Source of the DNA: an uncultured Candidatus Saccharibacteria bacterium
GTDB taxonomy: Bacteria; Patescibacteriota; Minisyncoccia; Phycocordibacterales; UBA9973
Length of the DNA stretch: 64,000 nt
Reading direction: 5' to 3'
Assembly: GCA_964482735.1 (NCBI GenBank)
Contig: CAYZYV010000002.1
Location: 22,061 to 86,060 of the forward strand
Below are positions 2,271 through 62,022 of the stretch, one piece after another. Position 1 is the stretch's first letter. Each line of letters opens with the position of its first letter. Under the pieces are notes generated by a model. It saw nothing but the letters and a program-made list of their open reading frames with translations, had not been told where the DNA came from and searched no databases. Both the position numbers and the translations under genes were made by a program.

Positions 2271-3686
2271 TTATGCTATTAATTCTTTTAATAATTTCTG
2301 AACAAGAGCAGGATTTGCAGAGCCTTTTGTCTCTTTCATAACTTGCCCAACAAGTGACATTATTGCATTTTCTTTTCCGCTTCGATAGGTCTCAACTATT
2401 GAAGGATTGCTATCAATTATTTTTTGAATGATTTCTTTTAATGCACCCTCATCATTTTTCTGTAAAAGATCTTTAGCTTCGGCGATGGCCATTGGAGAAT
2501 TATCTTCTATGACTATCATAGCTAAAATATCTTTAGCTACTCGAGAGGAAATCTTTCCTTCACTTACCATTTCTATTAATTCGGAAAAGTTTTTGGCGTC
2601 AGGTAATTTAATTTCAAGGTTCGTTTTCTTTAATCCTAAATAATCAGATGTTATGTAGTTAGAAGCGATTTTTATCTTATCGTTATTTTTAAGAGTATTC
2701 GCTACTTGTTCAAACCATAAACCTAATTCTTGGTCAGTAATATAGCTTTCTAAGTCTTCATCTTTAATTCCATAATCATTTTTGTATCTCAATCTCTTTG
2801 CACTAGGTAATTCAGGAAGCTCATTTTTTAATTTTTCTATATCAAAGATTTCAGATAAAAATAGCTTAGGTAAATCAGGATCTGGGAAATATCGATAATC
2901 ATTTGCATTTTCTTTTATTCTTTGAGAGAAGGTTGATTGTTTAGTCTCATCCCAACCTCTTGTCTCTTGCACAATTTTGTCTCCCTCCCCTTTCTCTAAG
3001 AGCTCAATCATTCTTTTTGTTTCGTATTCCGCAGCTCTTTCGACGGCCTTAAATGAGTTTATGTTTTTGACTTCTACTTTAGTTCCGAATTTATTTGGAT
3101 CATCAGAAACAGAAATGTTGAGTTCTACTCTCATTTGTCCCTTTTCCATATTTGCATCAGAAACTCCCAAATATTTTAGAAGTAACTGTAATTCTCTTCC
3201 GAAATCTCCCGCTTCTTTTGCGCTGTGTATAACAGGTTCTGTTACGAGCTCCATGAGAGGTACCCCTGCACGATTAAAATCAATCAAAGAAAAGTCACCC
3301 CTATCATGTTTAGAAGTTGCCGTGTCCTCTTCGAGGTGAACACGAGTAATTTTTACCCCATTTAACTCACCACCTGAAACTATTGGGTGTTTGTATTGAG
3401 AGATTTGATATGATTTTGGAATATCTGGGTAGAAGTAATTTTTACGGTCAAACTCGGTAAAATCTGTGATATTAGCATTTAAGGCTAAGCCAACCTTAAT
3501 TACACTTTTAACAGCTTCTTTGTTTATAACAGGCAAAGTTCCTGGGTGAGCCATACATACGGGGCAAATATTTGTGTTTGGAATTTTTTCATCTGGGTCA
3601 TTTTTGCAACCACAAAACATCTTTGAATTGGTTTTTAGTTCAGCATGTATTTCAAGCCCTATGGTAGTATAATATTCCTTTGACAT
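2271..3686 (-). CDS. gatB: Asp-tRNA(Asn)/Glu-tRNA(Gln) amidotransferase subunit B
   Basis: N-terminus TIGLEIHAELKTNSKMFCGC and DRKNYFYPD motifs. 471 aa. Confidence 0.9.
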   Translation of the reverse strand: MSKEYYTTIGLEIHAELKTNSKMFCGCKNDPDEKIPNTNICPVCMAHPGTLPVINKEAVKSVIKVGLALNANITDFTEFDRKNYFYPDIPKSYQISQYKHPIVSGGELNGVKITRVHLEEDTATSKHDRGDFSLIDFNRAGVPLMELVTEPVIHSAKEAGDFGRELQLLLKYLGVSDANMEKGQMRVELNISVSDDPNKFGTKVEVKNINSFKAVERAAEYETKRMIELLEKGEGDKIVQETRGWDETKQSTFSQRIKENANDYRYFPDPDLPKLFLSEIFDIEKLKNELPELPSAKRLRYKNDYGIKDEDLESYITDQELGLWFEQVANTLKNNDKIKIASNYITSDYLGLKKTNLEIKLPDAKNFSELIEMVSEGKISSRVAKDILAMIVIEDNSPMAIAEAKDLLQKNDEGALKEIIQKIIDSNPSIVETYRSGKENAIMSLVGQVMKETKGSANPALVQKLLKELIA

Positions 3687-3741
3687 ATAAAGAGTATAAC
3701 AGAAAACATAGCTTTTGAGAAATAAAAAAGCAGGAGAGATA

Positions 3742-3778
3742 TTTTTTATTTTTTATTTTTTATTTTTTATGCTATAAT
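3742..3778 (+). promoter_or_regulatory. Candidate promoter for tRNA-Leu: four tandem TTTTTTAT repeats (UP-like) followed by extended -10 TGcTATAAT
   Basis: The sequence attttttattttttattttttattttttatgcTATAAT ends ~20 nt before tRNA position 1. The TG lies at -15/-14 relative to the hexamer. Confidence 0.35.
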
Positions 3779-3798: not shown

Positions 3799-3883
3799 GC
3801 CCGAGTGGCGGAATAGGTATACGCGCACGACTTAAAATCGTGTCTCGCAAGGGATGTGGGTTCGATTCCCACCTCGGGCACCA
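3799..3883 (+). tRNA. tRNA-Leu (anticodon UAA), type II with long variable arm, encoded CCA
   Basis: Manual fold. Acceptor stem is GCCCGAG/CTCGGGC. Anticodon stem CACGA/TCGTG with loop CTTAAAA. 13-nt variable arm. T-arm GTGGG-TTCGATT-CCCAC. 3' terminus ACCA. Total 85 nt. Confidence 0.85.
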
Positions 3884-3884
3884 T

Positions 3885-3911
3885 AAAAAAAGGAGTTCAT
3901 CTCCTTTTTTT
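3885..3911. terminator. Bidirectional hairpin terminator (A7-aggag-ttcat-ctcct-T7)
   Basis: 5-bp stem flanked by symmetric A7 and T7 runs immediately after the tRNA CCA end. Confidence 0.5.
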
Positions 3912-3912
3912 A

Positions 3913-4047
3913 TGGTGCCCGAGAGAAAGCAAACTGCTTTGCTTTCGTGTGGAAATCGAAAGACTTTTCCGTATGAGCGAAGCGAGGTGGAAAAGTACCT
4001 GCCGATGTAATCGGCGATAAGCGAAGTGTTCCCACCTCGGGCACCGA
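3913..4047 (+). other. Structured ~135-nt element bounded by an inverted and a direct copy of the tRNA-Leu 3' end; candidate small RNA or integration scar
   Basis: 3913-3922 (ggtgcccgag) is the reverse complement of the tRNA 3' end. 4030-4046 (ttcccacctcgggcacc) is a 17-nt direct copy of tRNA positions 3866-3882. The interior carries four consecutive stem-loops: agcaaa/tttgct, ctttcg/cgaaag, cttttcc/ggaaaag and gccgat/atcggc. Confidence 0.3.
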
Positions 4048-4048
4048 A

Positions 4049-4079
4049 ATAAAAAACTGAGCAAAGCTCAGTTTTTTGT
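4049..4079. terminator. Bidirectional hairpin terminator (A-run ctgagc-aaa-gctcag T-run)
   Basis: Perfect 6-bp stem with A6 upstream and T6 downstream. It serves the + strand element and the minus-strand ORF 4084..4425. Confidence 0.55.
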
Positions 4080-4083
4080 AATT

Positions 4084-4425
4084 CTACTCCTCTTCTTGTT
4101 CTGTTATTGTTCTGAGTCCACTCTTAAGATTTTTTGTGTCCAACAAATCATCAGCCTTTTCATCCACAGATTTTTGAATTTGATTCAAACCTTGGCTAGC
4201 GAGATCTTTAACCAAATCTCCAGTTTTAGATTTAAAAGGATCAACAATATATTTTTTCCAAAAGTCCTGAATTTTTTCTGTTACATAGTTAATGTTTTTT
4301 TGAAACTGTTCAGACTCTATTTTGTCTTTTATGTCGACTTTAAATAATATAAGACCGAGAATGATAATGATGACCAACCCACCTAAACGTATTTGTATCC
4401 TAGGTTTTTTTGATTCATTTTCCAT
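4084..4425 (-). CDS. Hypothetical membrane-anchored small protein
   Basis: 113 aa with an N-terminal TM helix (LGGLVIIIILGLILF) and an acidic C-terminus. It sits directly upstream of the M23 peptidase gene. Confidence 0.4.
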   Translation of the reverse strand: MENESKKPRIQIRLGGLVIIIILGLILFKVDIKDKIESEQFQKNINYVTEKIQDFWKKYIVDPFKSKTGDLVKDLASQGLNQIQKSVDEKADDLLDTKNLKSGLRTITEQEEE

Positions 4426-34504: not shown

Positions 34505-36247
34505 TTACTCGATATTTGCTTTTATTCTTCTTATACCTGAAGCTACGGCTTCTTCTTTTAAGATTTTAAAATGTCCTAGCGATGAGATGTCTTCTACGTG
34601 TGGTCCTCCACAAAATTCTTTAGAGTAGATTCTCCCATTTTCGTCTTGAGCAAAATAAACAGATACAACCTCTGGATATTTAGCTCCAAATTCCATTTCC
34701 GCTCCTATTTTAACTGCTTCTTCTAGCGGCATCTCCCTCCTTACCATTTTAAGATTCAAATTTATTTTTTCATTTACCCAATCTTCTACTTTTTGTTTTT
34801 CTTCTTCTGTAAGCTTTCTATCAAAATTAAAATCAAGACGTAGTCTCTCTTCGGTAATATTACTACCTTTTTGTTTGATATCTTGGCTTATTAGATTTTG
34901 CAAAGCTGCTAATAATAAATGATGGGCAGTGTGTAATTTTGTTGTTCTTTCACTGTGATTAGCTAACCCACCTTTGAACATTTGGGTACTTGATTCTCTT
35001 GAAAGATCTTGATGTTCTTTTAATTTTAAATCAAACTGATTTCTGTCTATAGTTAGACATTTTTCTTTTGCTATTTCTTCGGTAAGTTCTATAGGAAAAC
35101 CGTATGTGGTAAATAAAATAAATGGATCTGTGCCTTTTTCAAATTCTTTCAATCCTTTTTCTAGTGTTTTACGGAATTTATTTTCTTCTTTTAATATCTC
35201 GTTTTTAATAAGATCTTTGTTGTTTTTAAGTTCAGTATAAAAATCACCATAATTATTACTAATCAAATCAGATATTTGAGTTAAATCTATATTGAGCTTA
35301 ATTTGATCCTTAAATCTTATGACTCTTCTTAAAATCCTTCTTAAAACATAACCTCTACCACTATTGCTAGGCATAACTCCATCACCTATCATAAAGACAG
35401 CAGATCTCATGTGGTCTGAGATTATTCTTATCACTCGTTCATCTTTTATTTCTGAGTTTTCTTTTATTAAAGAAATAATATTTGTAAATAGATCTGTATC
35501 AAAAACAGTTTTACCGCTTTGTGAGACCATGCAAATTCTCTCTAATCCCATTCCAGTATCGACATTATGCTGTGCTAATTTACCAATAACAACTCCATCT
35601 TTCTTCTCATATTGCATGAAAACATTATTCCATATTTCAATCACCTTACCTTTATTATCAGCTTCTACAAACTCATCGTGCGATAAATTTCCAATTGGCT
35701 CTTCGTTCGTATCATAAAAAATTTCAGTATCAGGTCCACAAGGTCCATTGTCTCCGGCACTCCACCAATTATTTTTTGCTGGAAGATAGTAAATTCTATC
35801 TTTAGGCAAATATTTTTGCCATATAAGAGCTGCTTCTTCGTCTCTCGGAGCATTTTCATCGCCAGCAAAGACTGTCACATAAAGTCGATTTTTGTCTAAA
35901 CCAAGTCCCTCATCTTTATTAGTTAAAAATTCAAAACTCCACTTGATAGCTTCTTCTTTGAAGTAATCTCCGAGAGACCAGTTACCTAGCATTTCAAAAA
36001 AGGTAAGATGTCGATTGTCCCCAACATCTTCAATATCTCCTGTTCTGACGCATTTTTGAACATCAGCAATTCTATTTCCCATTGGATGTTTTTGTCCTAA
36101 TAGATAAGGGACAAGAGGTTGCATTCCAGCAGTGTTAAAAAGCACAGAAGGATCATTTTCTGGTATTAAAGAAGCAGAAGGTATTATTTTGTGGTTTCGG
36201 TTCTTGAAAAAATCAAGAAAACGATTTCTGATATCTATTGAATTCAT
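34505..36247 (-). CDS. alaS: Alanyl-tRNA synthetase, compact form (catalytic + editing, no C-Ala domain)
   Basis: Class II N-terminus FNTAGMQP. Editing-site HTAHHLL and CGGPH motifs. Only 580 aa. Confidence 0.85.
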   Translation of the reverse strand: MNSIDIRNRFLDFFKNRNHKIIPSASLIPENDPSVLFNTAGMQPLVPYLLGQKHPMGNRIADVQKCVRTGDIEDVGDNRHLTFFEMLGNWSLGDYFKEEAIKWSFEFLTNKDEGLGLDKNRLYVTVFAGDENAPRDEEAALIWQKYLPKDRIYYLPAKNNWWSAGDNGPCGPDTEIFYDTNEEPIGNLSHDEFVEADNKGKVIEIWNNVFMQYEKKDGVVIGKLAQHNVDTGMGLERICMVSQSGKTVFDTDLFTNIISLIKENSEIKDERVIRIISDHMRSAVFMIGDGVMPSNSGRGYVLRRILRRVIRFKDQIKLNIDLTQISDLISNNYGDFYTELKNNKDLIKNEILKEENKFRKTLEKGLKEFEKGTDPFILFTTYGFPIELTEEIAKEKCLTIDRNQFDLKLKEHQDLSRESSTQMFKGGLANHSERTTKLHTAHHLLLAALQNLISQDIKQKGSNITEERLRLDFNFDRKLTEEEKQKVEDWVNEKINLNLKMVRREMPLEEAVKIGAEMEFGAKYPEVVSVYFAQDENGRIYSKEFCGGPHVEDISSLGHFKILKEEAVASGIRRIKANIE

Positions 36248-53244: not shown

Positions 53245-56200
53245 TTACTTTACATTGTTTATAAAATTAAATGTCTCATCAAAATTCTTAAATATAACAT
53301 CTACGATTGATTCTGTCTTCTTCGGAGTAATAATTGTTCTTATTGGTAATTTTGAAGTATTTCCGACGTCATCAGTAGAAGAAACTGTAAATCTGTAAAC
53401 TGCGCCTGGTTTTAAGGCTCCTAGAATTACTACGTGATTTCTTGTTAATTCTAGATCTTCTTGTTTATTGCTAAGCTCTCCTGAAGTACTACCGGAACCT
53501 TCTTCGTAATAAACTATAGACGTAGAAGGTTCATCTGTTTGCCAGGATATTATCGTCTGGACTCTATCGGTTCTTCCTTGAACAAGAGCACTATCAACTT
53601 TAAGATTTGTAACTGATGGGGGTAAGCTATCTGTAGAAGTTTTAACATTTAGTTCCGATCCACTTTCTACGGTATTCCCTTTATTGTTAATACCAGAAAC
53701 TTTTACTACATACGAGGTGCCCGGAGAAAGATTTTCGATCTTTATGGAGTGTGATGTATTTTTTTCTTCATCTACAATTTTTGAGGTTCTACCAGTCTTA
53801 GTATTCTTATATTCAATGATAGAAGTGGTTGGTTCATCTGTGGCCCACACGACCGCAAATGAATCTTTCTTTACATCTATTATTGAAGCTTGAATCTTGG
53901 AAGCTGAAGTAGTAAATATTAAGTCGTCCGATTTTCCTATTACTCCAGGTAGAGAATAAGCTTTTGCTGAATAATGATACTTTGTGTTAGATTTTAATCC
54001 TATTAATTTAATAGAGTGACTGGTGGATTTTTCCAATGTATTAGAGGATTCTCCGTTGTATGGGTTTTCTTTACTTGAATCGTATTTTTCATCTTCTATG
54101 TAGCTAACAACCGGGAATGATTTAACATTTGTTCTGTATTTAATAGTGGCACCACTCTCTGTAATATCAACAACTTCAGGTTTATCTATAAAAGGAGGAA
54201 CTAATGAAGGTAATATAGATTCAATTGTGGTCTCGATCTCTTTCTGGAATTGTTCTACGTTATCTATCTTTTTGAGTTCTGATAAGTCTTCGCTTAGATA
54301 TTTTGTTGTAAACTCTTTGTTTTCCGAATTACCTGTATCATTTGATTTATCCATGGCACTAATCTTGAAATTATAAAGAGTACCAAGACTTAAACCGTTG
54401 AGTTTGATTATATGCCGTTGAGACCAATTATCATCAGCACTCATTAGTCCGTAATTATCTTCTTTTCCGTACTTAATGAAAGCAATAGTATCTTCATTGG
54501 TGTTAAAAGAAATGGAAGCTCCAAAAGCAGTTATGTCAGAAATTTCTATATTGGATATTTCAGGAGCGATAGAATCCAAAGTGCTAAACTTCGCTTTGTA
54601 TGCTTGGTTTTCAGCTAGTAATAAATCATAAAGTTCCTGAGCAACTCCTGTTATTCCACCACCTCCTTTTGAAATAATCACTTTTTCTTTTGCTGTGGTC
54701 TCAAAAGAATACTCATCGGAAGTTGTTTCGTTACCGTTTTCATCGGTGGATTTAATTACATAATAATACTGCGTACTTTCTTCTAGCTCACTAATTGTTG
54801 CTAGGTGATTTGTAACTAGAGTATAAATAAGCTCTGTTTGATTGGTATAATCTCCAGAATTTTTTCCGTACAAAACACGACCATCTGCAGGTTCGTTAGT
54901 TGTCCAAGTTACAGCTACTTGTGAATTAGTTCTTATAGGGGTAGATATATCAGATATAATAGGAGCTGTTTCATCGTCGTTAGTACTGAATGTATAATAA
55001 CTGCCACCATTAGCACTTTCTCCCGTATTACCTAATTCATCAGAACTCATAACTAAAAAGTAGTAGATTTCATTAGGAACTAACCCCGTCAAAGAAACTG
55101 AGTGTTCGGTAGATAAAACTTCATCAGTTACAGTAGAAGGAGACGTCATATCTGGATTGATAGAATAACTAACTACAGAATTAGATGGAATATTTGTCGT
55201 CCATGTAATAGTAGCTCCTGTATCTGTTTCTCCTAGCGAGGCTACACTTGTTATTATAGGTCCTGGTGTAGTAGTAAACTGAGATCTAGAAATAGTTGTT
55301 TCTCCTGCCAAATTTGTAGATGTAGTCCTAAAGTAATAAGTAGTTTCTGGGGTTAAATTATCTATATAAATATTGTGATTTAAGACTTTATCCAACGATT
55401 GTTTTGATACACTGTAAACACCTTCTTCACCTTCTCTAATCGTTCCGTATTCTATCAAACTATCTGTATAATCAGCAGTGGTCCAGACTATTCTAGCACT
55501 CGTTGATTTTACACTTGCTCCATTAATATCACTAACAAGAATTTCATTGTCTAAGATAGAAAAGGCATGAATAATATCAGATCCTAATACTGCGTTTATA
55601 GGATTCGACAAAGTTATTAATACGTTTTCTGTTTCTTCGGAAAGCTCGTCATCAAAAATCACCACTGGAATGTTTACATTAGTTGATCCGGCAGAAATAA
55701 TTCCTTCATATCCTTCTATCAAATAATCAATACCATTGCCATCTGCAGACCCTCCTGTTACAGTGTAGTTAAATTTTATATCTTCAGGATATGGAGAAGA
55801 AATATTAACTAAAATATTTGCCGTATTTACATCTTCTTTTGCTTGACTTGTAAGACTAGCGAAAGATAAAGTTGGGTAAGTATCATTATCTATAATAGTA
55901 TAAGTATAAGTGGTGTTTGAATTCAAATTAGCTCCTGTTGCACCTGTTAATTTTACAATAACAGTTTCATCGTTTTCTTTTTTAGTATCGTCAATTATTA
56001 TTAAATCTATATTAGCTTCATCTTCACCTTTTAGTATTGTGATATTTCCAGAGGCAAGAGAAAAGTCTGATTCACTCGTAGCACTTCCACTTACTTCATA
56101 AGAAATGATAACATCTACCTCTGAAACTTCTGACAAAGTTATTGGTATTTTTACAGAAGTTATATTTTCTGTATTAGACACTGTAGATAAACTAAAACCA

Positions 56201-59200
56201 ACATTTGGATTAGAATCATTATCTTCTACTGTTAAAGTAAATATATTATTTTGACCAATTTGGGCATTTATTGGATTTTTTAAAGTCACCAAAATAGTCT
56301 CAGAATTTTCTTTTACGATATCATCTATTATAGGAATATTTAATGTAGTAGTTGTTGTCCCTGATGGTATGGTTATACTGCCGTTTATCATTGAGTGATC
56401 TAATCCATAAGAAGCCGAGCCTGAAATTGAATAATCTATACTTGCATCAAAAACATAAGGTCTGTCTAAAATAATATTGACTGGAAAATTATTACCATTT
56501 TCACTGGTAGCTATACCGGAAACCTCAAATGATACAGAAGGAGCGGTTAAGTCTAAAGTTTGCAATAAACCATCTTCAGAATAATCATTTTGAGTAGATA
56601 AAGGACTAAAATTAGGCTCACTGTTATCATGCGCAACCACTCTAATCCCTAAATTATCATAATTACCACCCATTAATCCTGTTTCATTAAATGTATTCCA
56701 CAAGATAGACATGTTTTCTCCATCCTCTAGGTAGTAATCACTGTAATCAAAACTATTAGGTGTGGTATTATCAGCCATAACCCAAACAGGAGTACCTGCA
56801 AAAAAGTCAGTATTCTGACGAGTCTCTCTTCCTTCAGAAACCAAATTAGGCCAAGTGCCAAGAACTAAACCACCAATAGTATTATTGTTTCTATTGTTAT
56901 ATTTTATGACTTCATTATTTATTAAAACATAACCACTATCTTTTAAGCCAGAGGAATTAGATAATTTTAAAGAAGTTCCATCGTAAGGATTATCACTCAA
57001 GGTTAATCCATTGTAATAAAACAAATACTCTTCAAAAGAAGGGTTATCTTTTTCATAGACGGTAGAATCTGTTATCTTGTATGTAACTACAACATTTCTT
57101 TCGTTGTTTTGAGCAACAATAACATTATTTATTATTGCAGATTGGTTAAGAACCCCACCACCCCCTTCTCCATAATTTTGTAAACCATCAGCCTTTACTA
57201 TTAAATCATTTCCTTGCCGAACAGAGATATTCCCATAAATATCAACCACTGAAATCAAAAACTTATGTATAAAAGATGGGGTGAGGTTTTTATACAGATA
57301 AAAATCTGTATTAACATCTGAAAGAACTCCGTCTTCCACTTCTCCTTCCTTATAAAAATTGGTTCCATCTGGTGAAATAAATTTCTCTATCTTGAAATGA
57401 GAAAAGTTTTGATATGACATTTTTAACCACCCTAGATACATAGCATAGTAATGGGTTTCCACATTAGAAACATCTTGTACTACAAAAGATTTTTCATAAA
57501 TAGGATCTGGCGATTCAAGGGTTACAATATTATTTGCATCTTCATTATTAAATAAATCTCTAAATCTTACTCCGGCTATCTTAGAATTAATTTGACTATC
57601 AAAAGACCATGGTACAGAAACTTCATCGCCAACCATTTCCACCCACCCTGTATCCATCATTTCTCCATTAGCATTAGATCTAAAATCTACAACTCGATAT
57701 TCTATATAACCAGAACTTTCTATAGGCCTTTTTATTTTAATTAATGCACTATTTTCTACTCCAACAATTCCAGCATCTAATGTTGCTGATAATTTTTCGT
57801 TCTCAAAATAAGGAATCTTGGTGTCTATGGATATCCCTTCACTTGAAGCACTTGATAAATTGTGAATGTTTTCTCCATCATCCACAGTAACTCTAATGAA
57901 GAGATCATCTCCTGATATTGACGAATCGTGTCCTCGAACAATATTTTTTACATCCAAAACAGCTTCGTGTGTAGTATAAGAAGATTCGTTTACTTCTTTA
58001 AGAGAAATATCTCCCTGTCTCAAAATAGGACTACTAGAAAAAACCAAAACAGAGGCATCTGCCCAATCAGAAGATTCTCCTACTTTATATTCTATTTTAG
58101 GAAGAACCTGGCCTGGGTAATTTACACCATGACTAGTATCCACATCTTTTACTTCATAAGTAAGTAAGACTTTTCCAAGATCTGCACTGTTCCTGTCTTG
58201 TATTTGATATGCTAGTACGTTTTTAATCTCAGGAGGTTTGTTCATCTCATAATCTATGCCTACCGATTGAACAACAGGCGTTGAATATCCTTCTGGATTA
58301 ATTTCTAATTTATATTGGAAATATCGATCATCACTACCAGAATTTAGAGGGTGGAGAGAATTCATTACTACACCCTTATTTTCTATTTTAAAATAATCTG
58401 TCTCTTCTCCTGTGCCAGAAAAACCATACCATGAAGACCAATTAGCTTTATCTGAGGATGTTCTAACCTTAATCAAAATTTTAGAAGTCTCTGATTCACC
58501 TGAAGCACTCCAGGACACTTTACTTAATCCAGATTCAGAATCTTCAGTATCAAAAATTGATGATATAAGATATCCATTAACGTATTCACTATAATTAAAA
58601 GTTATAGAATCGAAGGTGGGAGTAACTTCTGAATTGTTAGTAGATAAATTAACTCTATACTGAACGTATCTTTTATTACCCAAAGCTAAAAGGCTTCCAC
58701 CATCCAAAATAGTATTATTCCAATTTGTCCAACTACCATCTACTGTATTTGTATTTCCAGCTCTAACATCCACTGTTATATTTTGACCATTAAGAGTAGT
58801 TGAGTAATTAACTGAATTTAAAATGACTTGTTTTCCAAAATCCACAACAGGAGAAGTGTAAGAACCTTCTGTGTTATATGTATTAGTACCAGCCGACATA
58901 TTAGAATAAGAAACTGAGGCCTTTTTAACTAAAACAGGATAAGCCTTGTTTTCTCTTGTAGTATCACCAAGTTGTCCATAATCATTTCTTCCCCAAGCGT
59001 AAACTGTTCCATCGTTGTTTATGGCATAAACGGTATGCATATCAGACGTCAAAGATTTTATACTTCCTAAATACCCAGAATTATTTTCACCAACCACTTT
59101 AACTGGAACATTTCTATTTGTGGTGGTACCATCCCCTAATTGTCTATTGCTATTATTACCCCAAGAATATACCGTACCATCAGTTTTAAGTGCATAAGCA

Positions 59201-62022
59201 GAAAGTTCTCCAGCTGCCATTTTTGATACACCACTCAAAACACCTGTTCCACCTTCTCCTAAAACCTTGACGGGTGTATTCCTTTGATTGCTTGAACCAT
59301 CTCCTAATTGTCCATAATCATTTCTTCCCCAAGCGTAAACATTACCATTAATATCAATTGCATAAACCGAATTACTCTTGCTAGGAATAATATCTACTAT
59401 ATTAGAAAGGAAACCAGTTCCTCCAACTCCTAAAACTTGAACTGGGGTATTTTTTTTGACATTTGTTCCATCTCCCAACTGACCGGATCCATTGTGTCCC
59501 CACGCGTAAACAGTTCCGTCGTCTTTAAGAGCATAAACAGAGTAAGAAGTTGGAATTATTTTTGTAATCCCTGTTAAATATCCAGTACCTCCAACTCCTT
59601 TTACTTGAACGGGGGTATTATTCTGATCGTATGTACCATTTCCTGATTGACCATCATTGTTTTGTCCCCAGGCATAAACCGTTCCGTCATCTTTAAGAGC
59701 ATAAACTGCATACGTATACATAGAAGGGGCAATTTCTTTTATCCCAGTTAAATATCCAACACCTCCAACTCCTAAAACTTGAATAGGAGCATACTCGTTA
59801 TAAATTGTCCCATTTCCTAATTGTCCATAAACATTTCTTCCCCACGCGTAAACAGTTCCGTCATCCTTAAGAACATAGGCACTTTCTCCTAAAGATTCTA
59901 ATTTTAGAATATCACTTAGATAACCATTATTTCCAACACCTTTAACTTGAACCGGTGTTGATGTAGAAGCATAACTTCCATCTCCTAATTTACTATTATT
60001 GTTGCTCCCCCAAGAAAATACAGTGCCATCAGTTTTTAGAGCAAAAGCAGCAGCACCAGTAGCGCCTGTCCCACCCGACACTAAACTTTTTACACCTGTA
60101 AGATACCCAATATTATTTACCCCTTTAACTTGGACTGCAAAACTTCTGTCATCTAAATCTCCATGACCTAATTGTCCATCGTTATTTCTACCTAAAGCGT
60201 ATACAGAACCATCTTTTTCATATAAAAAAGAATTACCGGAATTATTTCCTGTTGTAATATTTATTTCTGAACTCAGACCTTCTTTGATATTGGTAAAATT
60301 TCCAATATTTTCTAATTGAATATTGACTGGAATGTTTTTACTAACTATAGTAGTATCTCCTAATTGGCTGCCATTATTTTGTCCCCAGGCGTAAATAGTC
60401 CCGTCGTTTTTAATGGCATAAATTGAATTAGATTTTCCAGCTACAATCTGCTTTACATTATTAAGACTACCTTCACCGGTTATATCTTTAACTAATACAG
60501 GTGTTGATCTGTTGGAATTAGTACCATCTCCTAATTTACCATTACTATTACTACCCCAAGAATATATAGTATAGTCATTTCTTAAAATATAAACAGAATT
60601 GGAAGTAGCACTGATTTGTTTAGCATTATCCAAATAACCAGTTCCACCCAACCCTTTAACTTGAACTGGAGTGTTTCTATGGGAAGTAGTACCGTCTCCT
60701 AATTGATAACTACTATTTTGCCCTAAAGAATATATTAATCCACCACTAGATTTAAGTATGGCAAAATTAGTATTGGTAACTATTTGATCTATATTTTCCA
60801 AAACCCCAACACTGTTGACGCCCTTAACTTGAACTGGCGTATTTCTGTCTGTACCAGTTGTTCCATCCCCTAATTGTCCATACCCGTTATACCCCCAAGC
60901 ATAAACTGTTCCATCATCTTTAAGAGCATATGCAAAATTGTTTGCAGATGATAAGTCTATAATATTTGTTAAGTAGCCACTTCCATCTACACCTTTCACT
61001 TGAACAGGAGTATTGCTTTGTGTGGTTGTTCCATCTCCTAGTTGTCCGTTATTATTTTGCCCCCAAGCATAAACTGTTCCATCATCTTTAAGAGCATAAA
61101 CCGCATTACCAGAAGATAATACTTTTTTAACACCCGTTAAAAATCCTACACCTCCAACACTCTTAACTTGTACAGGGGTTTTTGCGTTAGCAACAACAGA
61201 ACCATCTCCTAATTGTCCATAATCATTTCTTCCCCAAGCGTAAACATTTCCATCATTATCTACAGCCAACGTAGTATTTGTGTTTGCAACAACGTCTTTA
61301 ATATTGCTTAAATACCCCACACCAGAAACTCCCTTGACTTGAACAGGAATATTTTTATTTGTAATAGTATCGTCTCCTAGTTGCCCGTATCCGTTATATC
61401 CCCAACCATACAATGTTCCATCATTTTTTAAAACAAAAACAGAAGTGTCTGCTGCCACTATTTTTCTTGCATTGTCTAAATATCCAATACCACTAGAATC
61501 AGTCACTCTTTGGGGTGTAGATCTGTTTGAACTATTAGTACCGCTACCTAATTGTATATTTGTGTTTTTCCCCCATGACCAAACCCCTCCATTGGAATCT
61601 ATTAAGTAAACACCTGTTCCGTTTGAGGTGGTAGTAATCTGAATCTCTGACATACCAGATCTGTCCAATCCAACGGAAGCAGTTTCTCCAGTACTCACTA
61701 TTTCAGTTTGAGAGTTTACACCACCACTAAAATCAGAGTCAGATGTTTGAACTTTAGCACCGGAAGATGTAGAGGCAGAAATATTTTCTCCAATATTTAA
61801 ATTATTATTTTCTGTTATATATGACCAACCAGTTTTGTTCAGTTGATGAGTAGCAATCTCACTAGATTCAAGACCTGACCAATTATTTTGAGTAAAAGAA
61901 TAGGTGGCAGCTTGTGCAATTTGAGTATTAAATATTTGTCCAAAAACTAAAAGCAAAACAAAAACAAAAGAAAGTGATACTTTCCCTACTTTTAAAAGTT
62001 TTTTAAAATATTTTTTGTACAT
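53245..62022 (-). CDS. Giant secreted surface protein (2925 aa): signal peptide, 16 RCC1 beta-propeller repeats, beta-sandwich region, three Calx-beta domains, multiple FN3-like domains
   Basis: Signal peptide ends at AQA-ATY. There are sixteen repeats of the pattern VY[AS]WGxNxxGQLGDGTxxxxxTPVQVKGV. The three Calx-beta modules each carry the DDxxxExxE pattern (IIDDIVKENSE, IIDDTKKENDE, IFDDELSEETE). The C-terminal W...Y..R FN3-like modules follow. Confidence 0.8.
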   Translation of the reverse strand: MYKKYFKKLLKVGKVSLSFVFVLLLVFGQIFNTQIAQAATYSFTQNNWSGLESSEIATHQLNKTGWSYITENNNLNIGENISASTSSGAKVQTSDSDFSGGVNSQTEIVSTGETASVGLDRSGMSEIQITTTSNGTGVYLIDSNGGVWSWGKNTNIQLGSGTNSSNRSTPQRVTDSSGIGYLDNARKIVAADTSVFVLKNDGTLYGWGYNGYGQLGDDTITNKNIPVQVKGVSGVGYLSNIKDVVANTNTTLAVDNDGNVYAWGRNDYGQLGDGSVVANAKTPVQVKSVGGVGFLTGVKKVLSSGNAVYALKDDGTVYAWGQNNNGQLGDGTTTQSNTPVQVKGVDGSGYLTNIIDLSSANNFAYALKDDGTVYAWGYNGYGQLGDGTTGTDRNTPVQVKGVNSVGVLENIDQIVTNTNFAILKSSGGLIYSLGQNSSYQLGDGTTSHRNTPVQVKGLGGTGYLDNAKQISATSNSVYILRNDYTIYSWGSNSNGKLGDGTNSNRSTPVLVKDITGEGSLNNVKQIVAGKSNSIYAIKNDGTIYAWGQNNGSQLGDTTIVSKNIPVNIQLENIGNFTNIKEGLSSEINITTGNNSGNSFLYEKDGSVYALGRNNDGQLGHGDLDDRSFAVQVKGVNNIGYLTGVKSLVSGGTGATGAAAFALKTDGTVFSWGSNNNSKLGDGSYASTSTPVQVKGVGNNGYLSDILKLESLGESAYVLKDDGTVYAWGRNVYGQLGNGTIYNEYAPIQVLGVGGVGYLTGIKEIAPSMYTYAVYALKDDGTVYAWGQNNDGQSGNGTYDQNNTPVQVKGVGGTGYLTGITKIIPTSYSVYALKDDGTVYAWGHNGSGQLGDGTNVKKNTPVQVLGVGGTGFLSNIVDIIPSKSNSVYAIDINGNVYAWGRNDYGQLGDGSSNQRNTPVKVLGEGGTGVLSGVSKMAAGELSAYALKTDGTVYSWGNNSNRQLGDGTTTNRNVPVKVVGENNSGYLGSIKSLTSDMHTVYAINNDGTVYAWGRNDYGQLGDTTRENKAYPVLVKKASVSYSNMSAGTNTYNTEGSYTSPVVDFGKQVILNSVNYSTTLNGQNITVDVRAGNTNTVDGSWTNWNNTILDGGSLLALGNKRYVQYRVNLSTNNSEVTPTFDSITFNYSEYVNGYLISSIFDTEDSESGLSKVSWSASGESETSKILIKVRTSSDKANWSSWYGFSGTGEETDYFKIENKGVVMNSLHPLNSGSDDRYFQYKLEINPEGYSTPVVQSVGIDYEMNKPPEIKNVLAYQIQDRNSADLGKVLLTYEVKDVDTSHGVNYPGQVLPKIEYKVGESSDWADASVLVFSSSPILRQGDISLKEVNESSYTTHEAVLDVKNIVRGHDSSISGDDLFIRVTVDDGENIHNLSSASSEGISIDTKIPYFENEKLSATLDAGIVGVENSALIKIKRPIESSGYIEYRVVDFRSNANGEMMDTGWVEMVGDEVSVPWSFDSQINSKIAGVRFRDLFNNEDANNIVTLESPDPIYEKSFVVQDVSNVETHYYAMYLGWLKMSYQNFSHFKIEKFISPDGTNFYKEGEVEDGVLSDVNTDFYLYKNLTPSFIHKFLISVVDIYGNISVRQGNDLIVKADGLQNYGEGGGGVLNQSAIINNVIVAQNNERNVVVTYKITDSTVYEKDNPSFEEYLFYYNGLTLSDNPYDGTSLKLSNSSGLKDSGYVLINNEVIKYNNRNNNTIGGLVLGTWPNLVSEGRETRQNTDFFAGTPVWVMADNTTPNSFDYSDYYLEDGENMSILWNTFNETGLMGGNYDNLGIRVVAHDNSEPNFSPLSTQNDYSEDGLLQTLDLTAPSVSFEVSGIATSENGNNFPVNIILDRPYVFDASIDYSISGSASYGLDHSMINGSITIPSGTTTTTLNIPIIDDIVKENSETILVTLKNPINAQIGQNNIFTLTVEDNDSNPNVGFSLSTVSNTENITSVKIPITLSEVSEVDVIISYEVSGSATSESDFSLASGNITILKGEDEANIDLIIIDDTKKENDETVIVKLTGATGANLNSNTTYTYTIIDNDTYPTLSFASLTSQAKEDVNTANILVNISSPYPEDIKFNYTVTGGSADGNGIDYLIEGYEGIISAGSTNVNIPVVIFDDELSEETENVLITLSNPINAVLGSDIIHAFSILDNEILVSDINGASVKSTSARIVWTTADYTDSLIEYGTIREGEEGVYSVSKQSLDKVLNHNIYIDNLTPETTYYFRTTSTNLAGETTISRSQFTTTPGPIITSVASLGETDTGATITWTTNIPSNSVVSYSINPDMTSPSTVTDEVLSTEHSVSLTGLVPNEIYYFLVMSSDELGNTGESANGGSYYTFSTNDDETAPIISDISTPIRTNSQVAVTWTTNEPADGRVLYGKNSGDYTNQTELIYTLVTNHLATISELEESTQYYYVIKSTDENGNETTSDEYSFETTAKEKVIISKGGGGITGVAQELYDLLLAENQAYKAKFSTLDSIAPEISNIEISDITAFGASISFNTNEDTIAFIKYGKEDNYGLMSADDNWSQRHIIKLNGLSLGTLYNFKISAMDKSNDTGNSENKEFTTKYLSEDLSELKKIDNVEQFQKEIETTIESILPSLVPPFIDKPEVVDITESGATIKYRTNVKSFPVVSYIEDEKYDSSKENPYNGESSNTLEKSTSHSIKLIGLKSNTKYHYSAKAYSLPGVIGKSDDLIFTTSASKIQASIIDVKKDSFAVVWATDEPTTSIIEYKNTKTGRTSKIVDEEKNTSHSIKIENLSPGTSYVVKVSGINNKGNTVESGSELNVKTSTDSLPPSVTNLKVDSALVQGRTDRVQTIISWQTDEPSTSIVYYEEGSGSTSGELSNKQEDLELTRNHVVILGALKPGAVYRFTVSSTDDVGNTSKLPIRTIITPKKTESIVDVIFKNFDETFNFINNVK
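58990..61640 (-). repeat. Sixteen tandem RCC1-type coding repeats (~150-165 nt each) inside the giant gene
   Basis: Repeated GQLGDG / TPVQVKG peptide motifs. Coordinates are approximate, derived from amino-acid positions ~130-1010. Confidence 0.6.

Follow-up and report, generated by a model that had tools for sequence, protein, structure and literature searches.

We analyzed a 64,000-nucleotide stretch of DNA from an uncultured Candidatus Saccharibacteria bacterium (contig CAYZYV010000002.1; the whole 64-kb stretch is referred to here as the window) and focused on a short structured cassette that lies directly 3' of tRNA-Leu(UAA), the only tRNA gene in all 64 kb. The genes around the locus are gap, gatB, an M23 peptidase gene, gltX, and murG, and the nearest relatives of the flanking genes are found in metagenome-assembled genomes labeled Paceibacteria, Nomurabacteria, or Moranbacteria, within the candidate phyla radiation (CPR)/Patescibacteria. 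The interior of the cassette has a G+C content of ~47%, compared with 33% for the genome. Its parts are listed in Table 1. The 163-nt segment that distinguishes this locus from an empty site contains no credible open reading frame (ORF). ORFs of 54 to 56 amino acids do overlap the cassette, and we dropped a coding reading of the region because they also overlap the tRNA and because the hairpins change by paired substitutions.

Table 1. Features of the tRNA-Leu(UAA) cassette locus in window coordinates
Feature	Position	Strand	Basis or remark
tRNA-Leu promoter, extended -10 box TGCTATAAT	3770-3778	+	21 nt ahead of tRNA start; read from sequence
tRNA-Leu(UAA)	3799-3883	+	ARAGORN; Rfam RF00005, 63.3 bits; host gene whose 3' end is copied
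Proximal direct repeat (DR1) TTCCCACCTCGGGCACC	3866-3882	+	Exact 17-mer, twice in window
Perfect palindrome, 23-nt arms, 5-nt loop	3873-3923 (arms 3873-3895 / 3901-3923)	.	Repeat search; 100% complementary
163-nt insert relative to empty site	3883-4045 (equivalently 3866-4028, given the repeat)	+	Removal restores tRNA + CACCGAAATAAAAAACTGAGC..., as directly behind the L240 tRNA
Terminator 1, bidirectional hairpin AAAAAAAGGAG TTCAT CTCCTTTTTTT	3885-3911	.	Sequence; inverted-repeat search
Inverted arm GGTGCCCGAG, P1 5' strand	3914-3923	+	Reverse complement of tRNA acceptor 3' strand plus ACC
Hairpin HP1 (9 bp, CTGC loop), GAAAGCAAA CTGC TTTGCTTTC	3925-3946	+	Conserved in relatives
P2 5' strand GTGG, then junction AAATCGAAAG	3949-3962	+	Reverse complement of T-stem 3' strand plus T-loop
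P3, ACTTTTCC / GGAAAAGT	3963-3970 with 3989-3996	+	Encloses variable insert
P4, GCCGAT GTA ATCGGC	4001-4015	+	Conserved in relatives
Distal direct repeat (DR2) TTCCCACCTCGGGCACC	4029-4045	+	Exact copy of DR1
Terminator 2, bidirectional hairpin AAAAAACTGAGC AAA GCTCAGTTTTTT	4051-4077	.	Inverted-repeat search; also serves the convergent 113-aa gene
113-aa gene, convergent	4084-4425	-	Faces terminator 2

The proximal repeat begins with the final 2 nt of the T-loop and continues through the 3' strands of the T-stem and of the acceptor and through the discriminator to CC. An earlier, sequence-only reading of the window had reported a 17-nt direct copy of the tRNA 3' end at 4030-4046, which exact alignment might have shortened, and an inverted copy of the acceptor strand at 3913-3922. 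All 17 nt stand, one base below the reported position, and the inverted copy lies one base above its own; the bidirectional hairpin described after the CCA end and the second terminator are likewise present. None of 100 shuffles contained a match to TTCCCACCTCGGGCACC, even with 2 mismatches allowed, and CTCGGGCACC occurs three times in the window, twice direct and once inverted at 3914-3923, against a chance expectation of 0.01. The combination of a 17-nt direct repeat with a 10-nt inverted copy is therefore far above chance. The inverted arm is able to pair either with DR1, across terminator 1, or with DR2. Together, the tRNA 3' end, terminator 1 at the center, and the inverted arm make up the perfect palindrome, a design that is also present in two related loci, L001 (with 1 mismatch) and L084 (with 26-nt arms). 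Farther downstream, GTGGAAATCGAA at 3949-3960 is the reverse complement, at 11 of 12 positions, of the tRNA T-loop plus the T-stem 3' strand. Both terminators consist of an A-run, a G+C stem, and a T-run. Neither appeared in the output of a simple terminator scan, which in our reading is probably blind to them, since a stem extended through A:T pairs leaves no T tail.

We then compared gene order (gltX-M23-113aa-[tRNA-Leu]-gatB) across loci. Among the 32 closest gatB loci in GTDB genomes, the tRNA gene adjoined gatB only in L001, and because gatB synteny reached no further than this locus, we used the 113-aa protein and SmpB as additional probes. The comparison of the tRNA-Leu locus in relatives, which the sequence-only reading had suggested, yielded empty sites, sites with the same subtype of cassette, and sites with a different core. 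In L232 (GatB 81% identical) and in L243/L244, the site is empty, consisting of tRNA-Leu and one terminator with the neighbors in the same order. L231, L089, and L228 carry the window subtype at tRNA-Leu, and L240/L241 carry a different core behind the same tRNA. An identical 35-nt sequence, TTCCCACCTCGGGCACCGAAATAAAAAACTGAGCA, spans the boundary between the distal repeat and terminator 2 in the window and that between the tRNA and its first terminator in L240. Because this sequence follows the tRNA directly in L240, we conclude that terminator 2 is ancestral and that the 163 nt at 3883-4045 were inserted. Terminator 1 is unrelated to the terminator behind the L240 tRNA and thus came with the insert; the A that completes CCA also arrived with it. 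These empty sites and the orthology of the 35-nt terminator sequence bear out the suggestion that the direct repeat is an attachment (att)-type target duplication.

The occupied sites differ in the extent of the repeat. Direct repeats in relatives range from 15 to 68 nt; the repeat in L231 and L089 is 52 nt long and takes in the tRNA end and the whole terminator, and that in L228 is ~68 nt long and runs on into a second, truncated cassette. In these three loci, the two terminator copies are identical within each genome and the terminator stems vary between genomes, and the arm complementary to the acceptor has a 2-nt deletion next to an intact core. L001 (GatB 79% identical) has the window layout, from tRNA-Leu through a terminator and the inverted arm to HP1, in which 2 changes are compensated, and the conserved junction; its 3' half is longer, and the distal repeat, another terminator, and the 113-aa gene follow. 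The L001 copy, although it occupies the orthologous site, is 61% identical to the window copy and 78% identical to the copy linked to transfer-messenger RNA (tmRNA) in L084, which implies the replacement or movement of subtypes.

Several other rearrangements were seen at this locus. In L229 (2840-3170), tRNA-Leu is inverted with respect to its conserved neighbors and has no cassette behind it; an 88-nt insert is present instead at the tRNA 5' end, between 18-nt repeats, TTTTGTTTGCCCGAGTGG, that comprise the leader and the first 10 nt of the tRNA, and this insert ends in the HP1-like sequences AAACTGCTTT and CAAGCAGTTG. The L081 locus lacks the 113-aa gene, and its tRNA and cassette are inverted as one block with respect to gatB. 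A 580-aa ORF without a Pfam match lies between the 113-aa gene and the truncated second cassette in L228 (917-2659) and L238 (1848-3333); it is unrelated to the 580-aa ORF of the window itself (34505-36247). No recombinase domain was found in this ORF, in a 196-aa ORF of L231, or in the ORFs of an insert in L085, one of which encodes an NYN-domain protein. In short-read contigs of the window's own species (L234 and L237), the sequence starts precisely with the distal repeat, and in close relatives the tmRNA contigs (L252 and L254) stop at the tmRNA 3' end or 17 nt beyond it. Contig ends at these loci are the assembly breaks expected of repeats, and those in L252 and L254 hint that the tmRNA gene of the window's lineage is also followed by a repeated cassette.

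The core of the cassette is more conserved than its surroundings. The window core is 97.3% identical to those of L231 and L089 and 95.5% identical to that of L228, whereas the flanking DNA is 80.6% (gatB), 73.6% (M23 gene), and 70 to 77% (113-aa gene) identical; the tRNA is 100% identical. The few core differences either form G.U pairs or lie outside the helices, in the HP1 loop and other unpaired stretches. Judged from these sequence comparisons, the core is best read as being under strong purifying selection, and its near-invariance between species would imply a sequence-specific partner.

The interior was also found to fold far beyond shuffled sequences on both strands (z = -6.2 for the plus strand and z = -6.7 for the minus strand), in agreement with the highly structured segment that had been noted from the sequence alone. 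In the conserved fold, P1 (acceptor sequence) is followed by HP1 and then by P2 (T-stem sequence), which encloses the junction, P3, and P4, and the 3' strand is continuous. P1 pairs positions 4036-4045 of DR2 with 3914-3923, and P2 pairs CCAC (4032-4035, also in DR2) with GTGG (3949-3952). For the window copy, the conserved fold has an energy of -51.3 kcal/mol, compared with a single-sequence minimum free energy (MFE) of -55.3 kcal/mol, and the two folds differ. Of the four consecutive hairpins described previously, three (HP1, P3, and P4) recur in relatives, while the fourth is not among the conserved ones.

In a hand-checked alignment of 8 copies, 96.5% of the cells were paired and 12 pairs had changed on both sides. 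A 13-copy alignment (A3), which was fitted to the covariance model described below, gave 94.5% paired cells, with 21 of 27 pairs changed on both sides; the observed value was reached in 0 of 500 shuffles, and slid controls were 39 to 50% paired. Among the 13 copies, all nine HP1 pairs had changed on both sides (98% of cells paired), as had five of the six P4 pairs (for example, GAACAC GTA GTGTTC and GGCGAT GTG ATCGCC), and the closing pair of P3 occurs as CC/GG, CG/CG, or TG/CA. P2 (GTGG/CCAC) is weaker, with 88% of cells paired. That HP1, P3, and P4 are maintained by compensatory change, as conserved structured RNAs generally are, is well supported. The junction motif is common to the A-type copies and invariant in alignment A2, with the near variants GGATTCGAAAG and GGGGAATCGAAG in other types. 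Relatives also carry a module, which we call module B, of the form AGAC - hairpin - GGGGTCGCGA - hairpin - GTGACCGAA - hairpin; G.U pairs are retained in its long hairpin in 5 copies, and the tRNA-sense strand folds 2 to 9 kcal/mol better than the antisense strand.

Copies of the cassette were not confined to tRNA-Leu(UAA). A metagenome scan with the junction motif returned 6 real copies and 3 chance matches. Two of the copies lie behind tRNA-Leu(UAA) (L081 and L089), one lies behind a tmRNA gene beside smpB (L084), and one lies behind tRNA-Cys (L087); that in L085 is 1.4 kb behind tRNA-Leu(UAA), with an insert between, and that in L082 is behind a degenerate copy of a tmRNA 3' end at a contig end. 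SmpB homologues led to further tmRNA loci with cassettes (L251, L248-250, L255-258, and L246/L247). A covariance model (R1) built from 8 copies matched only just 3' of tRNA-Leu(UAA), tRNA-Leu(UAG), tRNA-Cys, tRNA-Lys, or tmRNA genes or of displaced copies of their 3' ends, which precede the cassette in L082, L085, and L248-250; it had no matches in ~40 other CPR loci without tRNAs. The family ranges in size from about 115 to 330 nt, and the window copy is an intact member of subtype A1.

L087 is the richest locus, with more diverged copies behind tRNA-Leu(UAA), tRNA-Lys, and tRNA-Leu(UAG), giving at least 4 copies in 1.9 kb, compared with 1 in the 64-kb window; no transposase was seen among the loci covered. 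The copies belong to a minus-strand operon (1-1800) with the order tRNA-Cys, cassette, tRNA-Leu(UAA), truncated cassette, tRNA-Lys, and cassette plus a partial tandem copy (an array of ~1.3 units behind tRNA-Lys), continuing to tRNA-Leu(UAG) and a cassette. Because there are no terminators between the first three units, several of these members are necessarily cotranscribed with the tRNAs.

On balance, and with belief running only a little ahead of doubt, we interpret these copies as a family of nonautonomous, noncoding structured cassettes that occupy an integration site at the 3' ends of tRNA and tmRNA genes in CPR bacteria of the Paceibacteria/Nomurabacteria type. Other inserts were found at the same positions. 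Integrase-less cassettes carrying a gene for an NYN-domain (ribonuclease-like) protein are present behind tRNA-Leu in L085 (3493-4913) and behind tmRNA in L248 (about 2851-3740), L249, and L250, where they sit between the gene 3' end and the terminator-plus-cassette and are flanked by 15- to 18-nt repeats of the 3' end. Two of the NYN proteins share only 26% identity, and L251, with an identical SmpB, lacks the NYN insert. Inserts of this kind imply that, in this clade, the integration sites at these 3' ends are active and that the newest insert lies nearest the gene.

The NYN cassettes bear on a proposal of the sequence-only reading, namely, that the window segment is an inert att scar made up of the leftover ends of a deleted larger island or prophage. 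Tyrosine-integrase islands classically leave direct repeats of a tRNA 3' end beginning in the T-loop, and the integrase-less NYN cassettes with their 15- to 18-nt repeats (L085 and L248-250) would fit such a history. However, the structured cassette forms the end of a larger element in 0 of about 20 loci, and in L248 it is separated from the NYN cassette, itself absent from L251, by a full repeat and a terminator. A scar should also decay, yet the segment is 95 to 97% conserved with compensatory changes. What lies between the repeats is the element itself, complete, recurring, and covarying, and we regard the scar proposal as very improbable.

The next question was which parts of the cassette derive from its target. 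The arm that precedes HP1 matches the local gene, being GGTGCCCGAG at this tRNA-Leu, GTGCCTGGG at the tRNA-Leu of L085, GGGCAGG at tRNA-Leu(UAG), and TGTGGAGATG at tmRNA, and it ends at the acceptor/T-stem border. It complements the gene sequence together with its trailer. The L001 tRNA gene does not encode CCA, and its genomic trailer, ACAA, is the sequence to which the inverted arm and the distal repeat both correspond; the arms in L231 and L081 likewise complement the genomic trailer (ACAA...) rather than ACCA, only the window's gene encoding CCA. At tmRNA genes, the 5' strand is GGGGATG (G3.U70); the arm, GGAGATG, instead complements the 3' strand exactly. The ACAA trailer and A3 together show that the arm copies DNA or precursor sequence and not the mature tRNA or its 5' strand. 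A primer-binding-site-like or antisense element directed against mature tRNA including CCA does not fit the L001, L231, and L081 arms. As to the earlier suggestion that a small structured RNA mimics the tRNA acceptor end or pairs with it, the structure itself is well supported and such an RNA is plausible, but it would not be a copy of the mature tRNA or its 5' strand.

The segment after HP1, on the other hand, travels with the core and may disagree with the local gene, as at the tRNA-Leu of L228, where GCGGG stands next to the T-stem, and at the tmRNA gene of L084, where the segment reads GTGGG. In the HP1-less copies of L255, L246, and L240, the inverted copy is uninterrupted, is 17 to 22 nt long, and ends at T-loop position 54, which in L240 is also where the direct copy begins. 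The acceptor-complement arm is missing from the L087 tRNA-Cys copy.

Host-matched arms could also arise without any dedicated enzyme or function, through template switching by the replication machinery at the palindromic terminator in a duplication-inversion-duplication (DUP-INV-DUP) pattern. Here, fold-back synthesis would copy the tRNA 3' end in inverted orientation, synthesis would pass to a paralogous cassette at another tRNA or tmRNA locus, and it would then return to the original T-stem. Such a path accounts for the exact match of the arm to its host, including the ACAA trailer in L001 and A3 as opposed to the G3 of tmRNA, for the inner boundary at T-loop position 54 that the inverted and direct copies share in L240, L255, and L246, for repeat lengths that vary from 17 to ~68 nt and the partial tandem units, and for a post-HP1 segment that mismatches the local tRNA (GCGGG in L228 and GTGGG in L084); that no recombinase was found also agrees with it. 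It leaves unexplained, however, the near-invariance of the core and its elaborate covarying hairpins. In addition, random switch points would not usually be expected to place the end of the arm exactly at the acceptor/T-stem border in one independent host after another, and at the empty sites the terminators are palindromic too, yet none of these palindromes reaches into the acceptor. We therefore consider template switching to be a distinctly improbable origin for the family.

Another explanation is that the cassette is a resident, nonmobile host noncoding RNA that acts in cis or in trans on the neighboring tRNA or tmRNA, its 5' region being antisense to the neighbor's last 22 nt, from T-loop to trailer. 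A duplex with the tRNA 3' half might mark read-through transcripts for processing or decay, for example, by RNase III, or the P1/P2 minihelix might recruit tRNA-processing enzymes and so release a small RNA. The contrast between a core that is 95 to 97% identical, with substitutions confined to loops or giving G.U pairs, and flanks that are 70 to 80% identical favors this view, as do the covarying helices, the copy inside the L087 tRNA operon, and the lack of a mobility gene in the searches made. The energy of the read-through fold points the same way. For the read-through RNA 3799-4083, the predicted MFE structure is "domain swapped" (-134 kcal/mol), with the tRNA from T-loop to 3' end paired with the cassette 5' arm across terminator 1 and the tRNA 5' acceptor strand paired with the distal repeat. 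Yet the cassette is missing from close relatives with the same locus (L232, L243, and L229) and is thus dispensable, and different cores occur at one site while one core occurs behind unrelated genes. The deletions in the arms of L231, L089, and L228, together with its absence at L087 tRNA-Cys, indicate that what is conserved is something other than pairing with the tRNA end, and the tandem partial copies and terminator-spanning duplications point to turnover at the level of DNA. A purely resident RNA thus seems unlikely to us.

If the cassettes are instead nonautonomous integrating elements, as we favor, a Campbell-type recombination may have taken place between the tRNA 3' end and a unit with the order 3'-end copy, terminator, inverted arm, HP1, and core. 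An event of this type would produce the observed order and would account for the difference between the CCA of the tRNA trailer and the ancestral CCG retained in the distal copy. Because the cassette itself encodes nothing, any enzyme involved would have to act in trans, and the excised form would be a unit-length circle with the junction ...GCGAAGTG joined to TTCCCACCTCGGGCACCATAAAAAAAGG. The cassette would be transcribed from the tRNA promoter, by read-through of a weak terminator 1 in the window and as an operon spacer in relatives. The extended -10 box is the sole promoter-like signal ahead of the cassette on the plus strand, and a promoter scan found no promoter-like site within 3884-3925. 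The transcript is predicted to fold into three hairpins within a closing stack of P1 and P2, which corresponds to the acceptor and T stems of a tRNA, and a sequence-specific partner would bind the near-invariant core.

Several observations weigh against this interpretation. Most importantly, the Campbell model gives no account of how the inverted arm comes to match each new host gene. The empty sites could equally reflect secondary deletion between the direct repeats, so that the direction of change may be gain or loss, and the strong conservation fits an RNA that benefits its host as well as or better than it fits a selfish element. The copies and their immediate surroundings yielded no gene for an integrase, a transposase, or a reverse transcriptase, and searches of viral, phage, and plasmid collections did not recover a parent element, whether free or autonomous. 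Nor did 20 mid-size ORFs of the window, all housekeeping or of unknown function, include a recombinase. The motif GGNAATCGAAAG occurs once in the 64-kb window, which therefore holds a single copy of the cassette. Finally, counts of G.U and A.C in the A-type helices (6 to 6) are uninformative as to the functional strand of the window copy, and evidence for the sense strand comes only from module B of the relatives.

A more speculative possibility, which we would not bet on, would address the matching of the arm. The cassette would be a self-retargeting mobile noncoding element that acquires the 3' segment of its host gene once in inverted and once in direct orientation. The acquired segment would start either at T-loop position 54 or at the acceptor/T-stem border and would extend past the terminator, and a folded strand, whether RNA or DNA, would always rebuild a duplex copy of its own integration site. 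Recombination at a hairpin att site or fold-back copying would then suffice, with no element-encoded protein and with the core serving as a handle for a host factor.

Searches for known families gave no match. With Rfam 15, at both gathering and permissive thresholds, the window, 7 related loci, and 2 larger relatives yielded only tRNA and tmRNA, the weak permissive matches being terminator hairpins; this Rfam/Infernal search, which had been proposed along with the sequence-only reading, thus placed the cassette in no family. ARAGORN and Rfam found nothing in 3884-4090, even at E values of up to 10, and detected only the real tRNA. Two pattern scans of viral contigs gave only chance matches in coding or G+C-rich DNA, a BLAST search of phage and plasmid collections gave no match to the cassette, and full-text searching of the literature turned up no description of such elements. 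We also rejected an inverted degenerate tRNA gene on the minus strand, since the distal repeat corresponds to the 3' end of the tRNA and extends beyond it into trailer and terminator and since HP1 would interrupt a 3' strand that is continuous.

Among known mobile elements, the closest parallels are genomic islands and prophages that use a tyrosine integrase to enter tRNA genes. They share with the cassette a site directly 3' of a tRNA or tmRNA gene, a repeat that extends from the T-loop through the 3' end, an arrangement in which the newest insert is nearest the gene and older repeats decay (L248), and empty sites in relatives. Of the features of an integrative element, direct repeats of the 3' segment and an unoccupied site were found, but an integrase of its own was not. 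The cassette also differs in its size (115 to 330 nt), in being noncoding, in having an extra inverted copy of the target, in an interior that covaries and is conserved above its neighbors, and in the occurrence of one core family behind several host genes. Miniature inverted-repeat transposable elements (MITEs) and palindromic elements (REP/BIME, Correia, and Rickettsia palindromic elements) are likewise small, noncoding, and strongly folding, occur at several loci in one genome (as in L087), are polymorphic for presence or absence, and cause assemblies to break at their copies. In contrast to MITEs, the cassette has no element-specific terminal inverted repeats, P1 being local acceptor sequence that is copied from the target and differs between hosts. 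Its target duplications are 17 to 68 nt rather than 2 to 10 nt, it is limited to the 3' flanks of tRNA and tmRNA genes, and its orthologous copies appear to be under strong purifying selection. We know of no partner transposase for it.

In anatomy, the cassette resembles the CTX-phi attP hairpin used by XerCD and the attC sites of integrons, in that the unit carries both strands of its target as an inverted repeat, a folded single strand would rebuild the duplex site, and the order repeat - loop - inverted copy - body - repeat is the same. The likeness is in anatomy only, as the target is a tRNA end rather than dif or attI and the arms vary by host. Finally, the cassette shares with tRNA-like structures (the tRNA-like domain of tmRNA, viral tRNA-like structures, and mascRNA-type RNAs) a P1 stacked on P2, a continuous 3' strand, the emergence of HP1 where the D and anticodon arms would be, and a location within tRNA transcription units. 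Unlike them, it is missed by ARAGORN and by the Rfam tRNA and tmRNA models and has no analogue of the T-loop or D-loop; its P1 runs through the discriminator and CC and is damaged or absent in some copies, and its 5' strand reverse-complements the 3' strand (with A3-U70 at tmRNA genes) instead of repeating the 5' strand of the gene. The cassette thus belongs to none of the known kinds compared and apparently represents an undescribed family.

CPR/Patescibacteria have tiny genomes with very few recognized noncoding RNAs or mobile elements. If our interpretation is correct, the cassette may represent either a new structured RNA whose partner is conserved in these symbionts or a new route by which DNA that encodes no enzyme colonizes tRNA genes. 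On either reading, it explains why assemblies of these metagenomes break at tRNA and tmRNA loci, and the covariance model can be used for annotation.

A few further features of the window were recorded. Directly 5' of the tRNA-Leu extended -10 box is a perfect array of the heptamer TATTTTT (4.4 copies, 3740-3770), which may be a UP-element-like A/T tract or a product of slippage. A giant ORF of 2925 aa occupies 53245-62022 on the minus strand, near the window end, and a 24-nt tandem repeat of 2.4 copies (234-290) lies inside a small hydrophobic ORF (22-423).

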